Origin: an uncultured Myxococcales bacterium | Lineage (GTDB): Bacteria > Myxococcota > UBA727 > VGSZ01 | DNA length: 24,940 nucleotides | Assembly: GCA_964580865.1 (NCBI GenBank) | Contig: CAZONM010000029.1 | Coordinates: forward strand, 1 to 24,940 | Reading direction: 5' to 3' | In this document: positions 6,598-8,230 of the stretch, in pieces | Position numbering within the stretch: position 1 is the first letter of the stretch | Layout: each line of letters begins with the position of its first letter | Notes under the pieces: generated by a model | Databases searched by the model: none | What the model saw: the letters and a program-made list of their open reading frames with translations, nothing else | Told to the model about the DNA's origin: nothing | Position numbers and translations under genes: made by a program

Positions 6598-7262
6598 CGA
6601 CGATCCTGCTCGCGACGCAGAACGCCAAGAAGGGGCGGGAGCTCGCCGAGCTGGCACGTGGCCGCTTCACGGTGACGACCCTCGGTGACGTGGGCCTCGC
6701 CAACCTCGCCATCGTGGAGAACGGCGCCACCTTCGCCGAAAACGCGCGCATCAAGGCGCGCACCGTCAAGGCCGCGCTGGCGCCGGCCGTTGCGCGCGAG
6801 GTCGCGTGGGTGCTGGCCGACGACAGCGGCCTGGTGGTCGACGCGCTCGACGGCAAGCCCGGGGTGCGCTCGGCGCGCTTCGCCGCCGACCACGGCGCCG
6901 GCCACGGCGACGAGGCCAACAACGAGCTGCTGCTGCTCCTGCTCGCCCCGGTCCCCGACGAGCGACGGCGCGCGCGCTTCGCGTGCGCCGTGTGCGCCCT
7001 CGCCGGCGACGGCGACGCCATGCACGAGGCCTTCGGCACCGTGGAGGGGCACGTCGCGCGCGCGCGCGCCGGCGGCGGCGGCTTCGGCTACGACCCGCTG
7101 TTCATCCCCGTGGCGCACGCGCCCCGGCGCATGGCCGAGCTGTCCGCCGACGAGAAGCACGCCATCTCCCACCGCGGCGTCGCCATGCGCGCCGTGCTCG
7201 ACGCCCTCGGCGCGCCGGCGCGCCCTTCGGTGTTCGCGCGCGCGCGCGTTCAGCGCGCCTGA
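6594..7262 (+). CDS. rdgB: Non-canonical purine NTP pyrophosphatase (dITP/XTP pyrophosphatase, Ham1/RdgB family)
   Basis: ILLATQNAKKGRELAEL, DDSGLVVDALDGKPGVRSAR, GFGYDPLFIP and KHAISHRG motifs. GTG start overlaps the rph stop (GTGA). The rph-rdgB pair is a conserved arrangement. Confidence 0.85.
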   Translation: MTTILLATQNAKKGRELAELARGRFTVTTLGDVGLANLAIVENGATFAENARIKARTVKAALAPAVAREVAWVLADDSGLVVDALDGKPGVRSARFAADHGAGHGDEANNELLLLLLAPVPDERRRARFACAVCALAGDGDAMHEAFGTVEGHVARARAGGGGFGYDPLFIPVAHAPRRMAELSADEKHAISHRGVAMRAVLDALGAPARPSVFARARVQRA

Positions 7263-8230
7263 GTGCACCAGATGCTGGGCCAGAGCACGACGTCGTCGAT
7301 GGCGAAGCGACCGCCGGCCGTGGCGTCCCACGCGCCGGCCGCGAGCTCGACGAGCGCGAGCTGCGCGATCTCGGCCACCAGCGGGTTGGTCAGATCGACG
7401 CGCCGGTAATAGCCGCCACCACCGGTGGCGGAGGTGAAGACCTCGGCGGTCGCGCCGTTGACCTCGAGCCGGACGATGCGATCGATCTCGATGTCGAAGT
7501 TCTCGAAGGCCTGCTCGACCAGGCCCCCGCTACCATAGAGTTGCAGCCCAAGGCCGGCTTCGGGGTCGATGATCACCTCGATGCTCGCGTTGCCAGCGTC
7601 GAAAAAGCCGAAGTAGAGGTCCTGCCCCGTGGTGCTCGGGAGCTCGGCGATGGCGACCTCCAGCGCAAATGCACGCTGGTCCCGCAGCACCTCGTTGGTG
7701 AGCCCCGCGTAGTCCGAGCCGCCGCTGGTGGCAGGCACGTCGACGCGCCACTGGCCGCCACCGATGCTCTGGGCGGTGGCCGTTCCGTCCCAGACGTCGA
7801 AGTCCTGTGCCTGCCCGTCCTCGAAGTCCTCGTACAGGATCGGCGTGCACTCGCCCTCGCCCTCGCCCTCACCCTCGCCCTCACCTTCGCCCTCACCTTC
7901 GCCCTCGCCCTCGCCCTCGCCCTCGCCCTCACCTTCGCCCTCACCTTCGCCCTCACCTTCGCCCTCACCTTCGCCCTCACCTTCACCCTCACCCTCACCC
8001 TCACCCTCGCCCTCGCCCTCGCCCTCGCCTTCGCCCTCACCCTCACCCTCACCCTCGCCCTCGCCCTCGCCCTCGCCCTCGCCTTCGCCGCCCGGTGCGC
8101 ACACACCGCCGGCGCAGGCCGACGCCGGAGCGCAGTCGGTGTCGGTCGCGCACGGTAGCGCGCCGATCAGGCGGCACGCCGCGGCGACGATGGTGAGCGA
8201 GAGAACCGCGAGCGCGAGCGCGACGCGCAC
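7250..8230 (-). CDS. Secreted protein with (Gly-Glu)x40 low-complexity tract and a ~200-aa C-terminal globular domain of unknown function
   Basis: Minus ORF 7250..8434. Proposed GTG start at 8230 gives [47 protein letters not shown], i.e. a signal peptide followed by a Cys-rich stretch. Then a perfect (GE)40 tract, then [24 protein letters not shown]...[11 protein letters not shown] (beta-rich, plausibly a lectin/jelly-roll-like fold; unassigned). Starts 5 nt after the Crp-like gene stop on the same strand. The in-frame N-terminal extension back to 8434 is antisense to the Crp gene and treated as spurious. The 3' end overlaps the rdgB 3' end by 13 nt (convergent). Confidence 0.6.
7850..8089. 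repeat. Hexanucleotide tandem repeat (about 40 units of ctcgcc/ctcacc/ttcgcc on the plus strand = GGCGAG/GGTGAG/GGCGAA on the coding strand) encoding (Gly-Glu)n
   Basis: Seen directly in 7856-8095. Coordinates derived from the ORF track (residues 116-195 of ORF 7250..8434). The unit variants are synonymous or wobble changes that keep the GE reading. Confidence 0.85.

Follow-up and report, generated by a model that had tools for sequence, protein, structure and literature searches.

The window, a 24,940-nucleotide stretch of DNA from an uncultured Myxococcales bacterium (contig CAZONM010000029.1), had a GC content of 71%, and long spurious open reading frames (ORFs) were common in it. Translation of its minus strand over 7250–8434 gave an unbroken (Gly-Glu)x40. 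The gene that encodes this tract, referred to here as the GE gene, lies at 7250–8230 on the minus strand. It has 326 codons plus a stop codon (7250–7252) and starts with GTG at 8230; every other in-frame start would overlap crp, its direct upstream neighbour. The crp gene (8235–8954, minus strand) encodes a Crp/Fnr-type regulator with cNMP_binding and HTH_Crp_2 domains, and 4 nt separate its stop codon from the GTG of the GE gene. Next upstream is a gene for a PilZ-domain protein (9009–9344, minus strand), a partner of crp that is conserved in relatives. On the other side is the convergent rdgB/Ham1 gene for a non-canonical NTP pyrophosphatase (6594–7262, plus strand), whose 3' end overlaps that of the GE gene by 13 nt (7250–7262). 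The final residues of the rdgB/Ham1 product diverge from those of its relatives exactly at the start of this overlap. The preliminary description had claimed an exported protein in which a (GE)40 acidic spacer separates a Cys-rich leader from a domain of about 200 aa. The ORF, the repeat and its flanks, a hydrophobic, Cys-rich N-terminus of 47 aa and a 199-aa C-terminal region, were all confirmed.

GC contents at the three codon positions were 0.77, 0.51 and 0.84 for the whole gene. In the sequence flanking the GE tract (C-terminal part), GC1 was higher than GC2, and GC3 was 0.89. An antisense ORF on the plus strand (7728–8582) reads the tract as (Ser-Pro)n. The variation among repeat units is equally synonymous in that frame, so the synonymous pattern alone cannot choose the frame. 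The GE frame was chosen because of the homology of the C-terminal region, the conserved N-terminal leader and the codon-position GC of the flanks. The (Ser-Pro)n ORF was rejected as the true product: it does not begin until 7728, it crosses crp in antisense, and its GC1 is lower than its GC2. A look-up of protein records returned no entry for the exact 326-aa protein, and the genome, metagenome and protein collections searched contained no other copy of the gene. The GC3 of the gene was slightly below that of its neighbours. These results indicated that the ORF is a real, lineage-specific coding gene. Given its lower GC3 and the lack of an orthologue in these searches, it may be a recent acquisition, weakly expressed or in decay.

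The (Gly-Glu)x40 tract (residues 48–127; 7850–8089, minus strand) consists of 40 hexamers with a G-rich coding strand. Tandem Repeats Finder reported 7850–8089 with a period of 6, 40.0 copies, 85% matches and 0 indels, which together with the translation verified the 40 uninterrupted GE dipeptides claimed before. It also reported a higher-order period of 48 bp (4.9 copies, 91%). The units were GGCGAG (17), GGTGAG (14), GGCGAA (8) and GGTGAA (1), and each of the 24 differences among them was a synonymous third-position transition. The peptide repeat is perfect, but at the DNA level the array falls short of a pure microsatellite. GGT was used at 37.5% in the tract vs 4.7% in neighbouring genes, and GAA at 22.5% vs 3%. 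Identical hexamers occurred in runs of at most five units, and exact internal repeats reached 50 nt at most. All k-mers of at least 51 nt were unique in the tract, so standard assemblers can get through it; the count of 40 is that of the assembled sequence.

The tract contained a 62-nt stretch with perfect 12-bp periodicity and runs of identical variant units. The 6-, 12- and 48-bp periodic blocks show past in-frame expansions. The tract would have grown by in-frame duplication of such blocks, after which only synonymous GC-to-AT transitions would have accumulated. As the changes since expansion are only synonymous, the peptide alternation itself would be under selection. The array had been called prone to slippage. 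In-frame block expansions did occur in the past, but the 24 synonymous interruptions and short identical runs of the present array weakened that claim.

A PROSITE PS51257-type lipobox has a basic residue among the first seven, an uncharged hydrophobic stretch, and [LIVMFWSTAG]2-[LIVMFYSTAGCQ]-[AGS]-C, in which the Cys falls at position 15–35. Residues 1–19 (8174–8230, minus strand) conformed to this rule: as read from the sequence, they contain Arg2, a 16-residue uncharged stretch and the lipobox V-A-A-A-C ending in Cys19. The Ala at its -3 position is permitted by the rule and is not the commonest residue. The following module (residues 20–47; 8090–8173, minus strand) contains a four-cysteine motif, C-x5-C-x5-C-x4-C, and gave only weak, sub-threshold Pfam and NCBIfam matches to Cys-rich families. 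The leader was aligned in a set of eight sequences (alignment A4; identity 38–49% to seven metagenome leaders and 26% to the homologue P0002). Cys19 lined up with the canonical lipobox Cys (GC, AC or SC) of seven other leaders. It was invariant, as were C33, C39 and C44, and C27 was conserved at the 70% level. P0002 carries LAAG-C, a Cys motif and two copies of the C-terminal domain, and the Myxococcota relatives P0003, P0004, P0006, P0007 and P0008 likewise begin with lipobox-like signals. The proposal of secretion through a Cys-rich signal-peptide region was thus right about the export signal and was refined to a lipoprotein-type signal with a lipobox Cys, which makes the product more likely membrane-tethered than released. 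The GE protein is a probable membrane-anchored lipoprotein.

The C-terminal domain (residues 128–326, 199 aa; 7253–7849, minus strand) has no lysine, and Cys128 and Cys322 are at its ends. A word-indexed homology search with it found nothing, and scanning metagenome contigs gave no match. An exhaustive phmmer search of 1.84 billion representative proteins detected only two relatives (E = 4e-11 and 2e-4), and a profile search detected 143 further homologues. No family was assigned to residues 128–326 by Pfam at E ≤ 10 or by NCBIfam at E ≤ 1, and the named ConA-like families (Lectin_leg-like, Laminin_G_3, DUF1080, DUF1349 and Glyco_hydro_16) did not reach the Pfam gathering threshold. The homologues had no precomputed Pfam match either; DUF1349 is a UniRef label on two Streptomyces relatives that lack such a match. 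Full-protein matches to TrAA12, ser_rich_anae_1 and a Na/Ca exchanger scored far below their cut-offs and were discarded as artefacts of the low-complexity GE tract. A profile search of PDB sequences returned noise alone (E ≥ 0.36). The domain family is small and unnamed, consisting of Myxococcota lipoproteins and Streptomyces proteins of ~215 aa.

The domain was modeled using AlphaFold2. With an alignment of 72 sequences, mostly Streptomyces proteins 16–22% identical to the query, the model had a pLDDT of 91.6 and a pTM of 0.88; a single-sequence run was unusable (pLDDT 36.9). The predicted model is a two-sheet, curved beta-sandwich (jelly-roll) that superimposes on known concanavalin-A-like (ConA-like) members. 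Its best structural matches were L-type lectins, GH16 enzymes and carbohydrate-binding modules, in line with the lectin or jelly-roll guess of the preliminary description, and a viral fold library gave generic ConA-like matches and no others. The domain is probably a ConA-like beta-sandwich, its ends probably clamped by a disulfide. The superfamily includes ERGIC-53/VIP36, legume lectins, GH16, GH43 accessory domains, phage receptor-binding carbohydrate modules and YesU. Identity to structural neighbours was 6–16%, and 8–12% to L-type (legume/ERGIC-53) lectins. The GH16 catalytic motif E-x-D-x(x)-E (ExDxxE) was neither seen in the sequence nor conserved in alignment A2. The closest string, E-V-I-I-D-P-E, is spaced incorrectly and lacks conservation in A2, and a GH16-type enzyme was rejected since the motif is missing. 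The wider-family motifs DDFDDG, YDPVAHRxWR and WETSPDG are degenerate in the GE protein, suggesting that an ancestral binding activity may have been lost.

The surroundings of the gene were compared with those of relatives. Orthologues of crp (79–98% identity) were found at 11 loci (L001–L011), and tblastn detected no relative of the C-terminal domain at any of them. The PilZ–Crp pair was conserved in seven (L001, L002, L003, L005, L006, L007 and L011). The crp–rdgB junction was reached in two syntenic relatives, L002 and L003. There the two genes are convergent, with stop codons 30 bp apart in L002 and ~38 bp apart in L003, and the GE gene is missing. In L004–L011 different genes follow crp. 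No conserved linkage of the GE gene with Crp/PilZ was found across relatives, and the genomic contexts of P0001, P0003 and P0006 revealed no conserved neighbourhood. The comparison indicated that the GE gene was gained on its own, as a single gene, between the stop codons of crp and rdgB. Its absence from both junctions implied that the adjacency to Crp/PilZ is recent and incidental. Crp-like and PilZ genes had been placed upstream on the same strand, as they are, and second-messenger control had been deduced from them. The latter was not supported, as the PilZ–Crp pair is conserved and the GE gene is absent at the L002/L003 junction. No promoter-like or terminator-like site was found at 6900–9700 by a scan whose consensus is that of E. 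coli sigma-70 and says little for this phylum. With a 4-nt gap, co-transcription by read-through is possible, and transcription of the GE gene would probably be read-through from the PilZ–crp unit; this is not evidence of regulation.

A metagenome scan for (GGNGAR)x10 matched at least 120 contigs. About 16 GE tracts lay at most 90 aa downstream of a lipobox-like motif, and seven of these had the Cys motif of the window. The domains behind the recurring leaders were unrelated, and just one had a Pfam match (alpha/beta hydrolase). These matches indicate that the leader "lipobox, Cys motif, (GE)n" is a recurring one, found before unrelated domains in high-GC metagenome contigs, and this recurrence is new. 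In the literature searched, Gly-Glu repeats were described from eukaryotes and viruses and "GE" appeared in unrelated senses, and no description of bacterial GE/Gly-Glu repeats was found. In uncultivated high-GC (Myxococcota-like) bacteria, the leader could serve as a portable cassette for display, with the signal peptide, lipobox Cys, C-x5-C-x5-C-x4-C and (GE)n recombined onto many unrelated passengers. The GE tract would then be a sorting or stand-off determinant or a charged ruler for the distance from the membrane, not passive, and the synonymous scrambling, in which GAA and GGT are enriched although the genomes otherwise avoid them, would be selected against G-quadruplexes and slippage. 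We regard this idea as speculative and unlikely. Possible parallels for a sorting role are the acidic lipoprotein export signal of Bacteroidota and the tether of Borrelia lipoproteins.

As a whole, the GE protein is best read, with moderate confidence, as a lineage-specific extracytoplasmic lipoprotein with a ConA-like domain on a disordered, polyanionic GE tether, its gene having been gained between crp and rdgB. Cys19 would carry the lipid and be the first residue of the mature protein. The four-cysteine motif after it would form a small, probably disulfide-bonded module. With ~40 negative charges and no hydrophobic residue, the GE tract should be a disordered, electrostatically swollen tether, and its contour length is estimated at ~29 nm (80 residues x ~0.36 nm). 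The tether would keep the lectin-fold domain off the lipid-anchoring membrane, and the domain would bind a ligand there, most plausibly a glycan as judged from the fold.

Other readings were weighed against this one. The protein might be soluble and secreted, with signal peptidase I cutting at A-A-A / C to release it and the GE tract serving as a solubilising or cation-binding polyanion (e.g. Ca2+/metal sequestration in the matrix). An A-x-A directly before Cys19, a mature protein with 73 acidic vs 10 basic residues and no lysine, and GE tracts that also connect the domains of large, secreted proteins with no lipobox close by are all consistent with this. However, the clear lipobox cysteines of leader-sharing proteins (L-A-V-A-G-C, I-T-G-A-G-C and L-A-A-G-C) align with Cys19, and Myxococcota relatives of the C-terminal domain are lipobox proteins too, so that release seems unlikely. 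It is rather improbable that the tract is a length-variable contingency locus, with frequent in-frame slippage and spacer-length variation among cells as the selected function. The long perfect repeat tract of such a locus was not found here, where no more than five identical hexamers stand in a row. The many fixed synonymous differences point to an old, fairly stable array and not to one kept uniform by constant slippage, and the only near-identical pair of contigs in the scan (L083/L147) had equal copy numbers (19 each). The gene itself offered no second copy for comparison. Such a locus would still account for 240 bp of period-6 repeat and for the past block duplications, and the location of 41 of 126 metagenome GE tracts at contig ends fits either heterogeneity or assembly difficulty.

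For a second-messenger-controlled surface adhesin, in which the GE gene belongs to the PilZ–Crp module and is switched by c-di-GMP/cAMP, one can cite the shared strand, the short gap after crp, the region free of promoter-like and terminator-like sites, and another cNMP-binding protein close by (10821–11288). We consider it very unlikely, as the gene is absent at both syntenic junctions, crp is followed by something else in the remaining relatives, and homologues of the C-terminal domain occur in unrelated contexts. The promoter scan with its E. coli consensus is of little weight for this phylum. Most improbable is that there is no functional gene, whether as a chance ORF over a non-coding microsatellite, an antisense (Ser-Pro)n product or a tract whose length is an assembly artefact. 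The frequent spurious ORFs, the equally synonymous antisense frame, the missing protein record and the lower GC3 would suit this explanation. They are outweighed by the significant homologues and the confidently predicted fold of the C-terminal domain, the leader conserved in other proteins, the faults of the antisense ORF and the absence of any exact repeat longer than 50 nt in the tract.

The lipoprotein reading was compared with known systems. About half of E. coli outer-membrane lipoproteins depend for their sorting on a disordered linker at the N-terminus (bioRxiv 10.1101/2021.01.05.425367). In Gram-negative lipoproteins such as RcsF, Pal and NlpD, the length and disorder of the linker, not its sequence, govern sorting and reach (El Rayes et al., bioRxiv 10.1101/2021.01.05.425367; Pal linker length, PMC12826056). 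Similar to these, the GE protein would have a disordered segment between a probably lipidated Cys and a folded domain. The differences are that its linker repeats one dipeptide perfectly over 80 residues, is far longer and uniformly anionic and comes after a four-Cys motif, and that it is from an uncultivated Myxococcota-like bacterium. The Ser-Asp dipeptide-repeat (SDR) stalk of staphylococcal Clf/Sdr adhesins (PMC3794999) is also a long acidic dipeptide repeat between an anchor and a ligand-binding domain, and its DNA repeat is also degenerate at synonymous positions. However, those proteins belong to Gram-positive bacteria and are anchored by sortase through LPXTG at the C-terminus, with the ligand domain on the N-terminal side of the stalk. 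SdgA/SdgB O-glycosylate the SD repeats, and Gly-Glu offers no hydroxyl for such a modification. There is no sequence relationship, and the analogy is functional only. A Clf/Sdr-type sortase-anchored adhesin was rejected: the repeat is Gly-Glu rather than Ser-Asp, LPXTG and a hydrophobic tail are absent, and the domain is ConA-like, not an N-terminal IgG-like A domain. Long Gly/Glu-rich low-complexity tracts with purine-rich repeats that are hard to sequence also occur in RPGR ORF15 (PMC9897430, PMC13052805) and in AlHV-1 LANA, whose GE-rich domain acts in cis on protein synthesis (PMC5695634). Unlike the GE protein, these are cytoplasmic or nuclear proteins of eukaryotes or herpesviruses. Their repeats are imperfect, and bacteria have no equivalent of what they do, whether as a TTLL5 glutamylation substrate or in immune evasion.

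Current understanding is not overturned by the GE protein, which is a curiosity with a biophysical angle and not a new kind of system. Through its C-terminal domain, the ConA-like superfamily gains a further branch, small and so far unnamed. As GE tracts break short-read assemblies, with a third of them at contig ends, such genes are probably under-counted. If the lipoprotein reading is true, it would provide a clean natural, sequence-defined polyelectrolyte tether on a bacterial lipoprotein, with 80 residues, two amino acids and ~40 negative charges, and the same leader and tether would be reused before unrelated domains in environmental high-GC bacteria. The GE-tract lipoprotein would be a simple system for the effects of linker length and charge on lipoprotein localisation and reach. 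Functional disorder after the lipidated Cys would then extend from the short, heterogeneous linkers of E. coli to long, repetitive and strongly charged ones.

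The minus-strand open frame of the GE gene spans 8434 to 7250, in a window of 71% G+C. The crp stop codon is at 8235-8237, and the GTG at 8230, four bases beyond it, was the sole in-frame start without crp overlap. The product from this GTG has 326 aa: 47 N-terminal residues, (Gly-Glu)x40 and 199 residues. It contains no lysine at all, and its mature form has 73 Asp+Glu vs 10 Arg. Tandem Repeats Finder placed the repeat at 7850-8089 (minus strand), with a period of 6, 40.0 copies, 85% matches and no indels. With the translation, this confirmed the coordinates and the repeat of the preliminary description; the strand is minus. 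The hexamer units were GGCGAG (17), GGTGAG (14), GGCGAA (8) and GGTGAA (1), and all 24 departures from GGCGAG were synonymous third-position transitions.

Synonymous-only change looks like purifying selection on the GE peptide, a pattern matched by one antisense frame. The plus-strand ORF at 7728-8582 reads the repeat as (Ser-Pro)n, and every unit difference is synonymous there too, so the choice of frame needs other evidence. In a hexamer repeat, synonymous-only variation is insufficient alone to assign the frame. The (Ser-Pro)n ORF was rejected as the product: it begins only at 7728, it runs antisense through crp, and its GC at codon positions 1 and 2 is swapped, which is atypical. In the GE frame, the non-repetitive C-terminal part had GC1 > GC2 and a GC3 of 0.89, resembling the neighbouring genes (0.93-0.96). 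From codon-position GC, the C-terminal homologues and the shared N-terminal leader, we concluded that the gene is read in the GE frame.

A second period of 48 bp (4.9 copies, 91%) was detected in the tract by Tandem Repeats Finder. A 62-nt stretch was perfectly 12-bp periodic, (GGTGAG GGCGAA)n, a 92-nt stretch was perfectly 48-bp periodic, and the longest exact internal repeat was 50 nt. These periods are evidence that the tract grew by duplication of 6-, 12- and 48-bp blocks once point mutations had marked the units. The present tract is no pure microsatellite but an array with interruptions, and its expansions were in frame and in the past. The earlier view of a slippage-prone array was thus weakened: the block periodicities speak for past in-frame expansion, but today the array is interrupted, with at most five identical hexamers in a row. 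All k-mers of at least 51 nt in the tract were unique, so an assembler could traverse it; the count of 40 copies is as assembled.

The codon usage of the tract is abnormal for this genome. Of its Gly codons, 37.5% were GGT, vs 4.7% across eight neighbouring genes (Fisher p 2e-7), and of its Glu codons 22.5% were GAA, vs 3% (p 1.5e-4). GGG was absent from the tract and accounted for 19% of background Gly codons. The 24.9-kb window as a whole had six canonical G-quadruplex motifs (G3+N1-7 x4); five of these were inside the GE tract, each on its coding strand. ViennaRNA gave the tract -84.9 kcal/mol with G-quadruplexes enabled vs -35.4 without. The GGG runs arise from GAG-GGN and are broken by GAA.

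The gene sits in a chromosomal housekeeping neighbourhood. RNase PH and RdgB/Ham1 genes lie upstream on the plus strand, and a cyclic-nucleotide-related cluster within 8235-11288 encodes PilZ, Crp, a DUF2199 protein and a cNMP-binding protein (10821-11288). Further neighbours encode thioredoxin-reductase-like, UvrB, Ser/Thr kinase, GH94-like lipoprotein and SecF proteins. A major-vault-protein-like gene (852 aa, 2937-5495, plus strand) matched Pfam MVP_shoulder (E 2e-17) and the vault repeat Vault_3 (E 5e-7). This is a match to the shoulder domain of the eukaryotic major vault protein in a Myxococcota-type genome, and the 2937-5495 region was conserved in the relative L002.

A Crp protein search of species-representative genomes found eleven orthologous loci, all of them in MAGs of Myxococcota or 'Deltaproteobacteria', and none of the eleven encoded a relative of the C-terminal domain. 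L002 was syntenic on both sides at 85-87% nucleotide identity, and window segments 2938-7246 and 8240-10787 aligned to adjacent segments of it. Between the crp and rdgB stop codons lie 30 bp in L002 and about 38 bp in L003, which is more distant; the window has the 981-nt GE gene at this junction. The GE gene (minus) and rdgB/Ham1 (plus) converge, and their 3' ends overlap by 13 nt at 7250-7262. The RdgB C-terminus reads ..ARARVQRA in the window, ..ARARPAGR in L002 and ..KRARPR in L003. Divergence starts exactly at the overlap, as if the rdgB terminus had been rewritten by the gained gene. By parsimony, these comparisons favoured a single-gene gain in the window's lineage. The closest relative, L001 (88% nucleotide identity), was uninformative on this gain because its contig stops 115 bp past crp (6718-6832), terminating in a GGGCGAC heptamer repeat unlike the window. 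No mobile-element remnant was visible at the crp/rdgB junction in the window because the junction has no spare sequence.

Second-messenger control had been suggested from the Crp and PilZ neighbours. The PilZ-Crp pair was kept in 7 of the 11 crp loci, but the gene downstream of crp varied, and the suggestion was therefore not supported. Read-through transcription from crp is plausible given the 4-nt gap. A scan, weak for this phylum, found no promoter-like or terminator-like site.

The C-terminal domain (residues 128-326) matched no Pfam or NCBIfam family, even at permissive thresholds, and a word-indexed search of 5.8 billion proteins returned no match. Exhaustive phmmer against 1.84 billion representatives found two homologues, P0001 (E 4e-11) and P0002 (E 2e-4), each with the domain twice. 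P0002 opens with a lipobox signal (LAAG-C) and then has a Cys motif. Profile searches enlarged the family to 143 proteins, comprising Myxococcota-type proteins with lipobox-like starts (one annotated Kofleriaceae) and a large Streptomyces set. The Streptomyces family (P0009-P0127; about 215 aa) is large, well conserved and without signal peptide, and is distant kin of the domain. Two Streptomyces members were labelled DUF1349 by UniRef; none had precomputed Pfam hits. The protein from the window diverges from the rest of the family: the conserved family strings DDFDDG, YDPVAHRxWR and WETSPDG are only partly recognisable in it.

AlphaFold2 with a 72-sequence alignment modeled the domain as an all-beta sandwich (pLDDT 91.6, pTM 0.88); a single-sequence run gave a pLDDT of 36.9. 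Foldseek structural matches agreed with a concanavalin-A-like fold. The predicted fold is thus that of concanavalin-A-like lectins/glucanases, in line with the earlier lectin or jelly-roll guess. A GH16 catalytic motif was neither found in the window protein sequence nor conserved in the family alignment. A non-enzymatic binding role would be the most economical inference from the fold alone. Cys128 and Cys322 flank the domain, and in P0001 and P0006, too, terminal cysteines flank the copies of this domain. Apart from the lipobox Cys there are six cysteines, including four in the leader motif, a set that would fit disulfide bonding in an oxidising compartment outside the cytoplasm. Within the ConA-like superfamily, the gene falls as an orphan-like member into a small branch that lacks a name.

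JGI metagenome contigs were scanned for (GGNGAR)x10, giving at least 120 contigs, with 126 tracts among the matches listed. Many of these listed tracts sat in low-GC eukaryote-like ORFs or uninterpretable short contigs. At contig ends were 41 of the 126, indicating that GE repeats often break assemblies; internal tracts among the matches listed reached 49 units, with a median of 13. About 16 listed tracts were at most 90 residues downstream of a lipobox-like motif. Seven high-GC leaders (L101, L106, L129, L145, L150 and L188 among the matches listed, and P0002, which has no GE tract) could be aligned to the window N-terminus at 38-49% identity. Invariant across this alignment were the lipobox Cys and, within the four-cysteine motif C-x5-C-x5-C-x4-C, three cysteines; L106 and L150 also shared a C-R-L-L/I-G string behind the lipobox Cys. 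The domains beyond the tract were mutually unrelated, nearly all without Pfam hits, with one alpha/beta hydrolase.

The 106-kb contig L129 carries two GE-tract lipoprotein genes at most 3 kb apart (4243-5307, plus; 6972-8066, minus), and L116, L134 and L140 from the same sample have tracts of 20-24 units; some genomes seem to use the GE linker many times. The product of L129 6972-8066 has one GE tract behind the lipobox and another as its extreme C-terminus. Near the crp orthologue of L004, a 466-aa lipoprotein (2856-4256, minus; lipobox L-V-A-C) has an imperfect GE-rich VEGEGEEGEGEEGEEGEGE directly behind the anchor; the clade therefore has GE-rich tethers in addition to the one encoded in the window. 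Among the matches listed, GAA made up about 50-80% of Glu codons in most GE tracts of high-GC contigs and 36-48% in three, a more marked form of the anomaly seen in the window. Breaking of GGG runs by GAA may be the reason for this enrichment. No description of bacterial GE-repeat linkers was found in the searchable literature. Judged from these alignments, the leader plus GE tether is a design that recurs in environmental high-GC bacteria.

The (GE)40 tract and the lipobox leader upheld the preliminary description of an acidic spacer in an exported protein; with the lectin-like fold, this part of the interpretation stood, and the regulatory part and, to a lesser degree, the slippage claim did not. 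Once exported, the protein would be lipid-modified at Cys19 and lose its signal peptide. The N-terminal lipid would then hold the mature protein on a membrane, and a small disulfide-bonded motif would adjoin the anchor. (GE)40 lacks hydrophobic side chains and has a net charge near -40. By general polymer reasoning, the chain should be disordered and expanded, with an estimated contour length of about 29 nm. It would set the lectin-fold domain well off the membrane, where a polymeric ligand, for example a polysaccharide, could be reached. The gene resembles known lipoproteins with a disordered N-terminal tether, and known dipeptide-repeat stalks. In E. coli, N-terminal disordered linkers are required for Lol-dependent lipoprotein sorting (bioRxiv 10.1101/2021.01.05.425367). 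By analogy, the GE tether may matter for trafficking as well.
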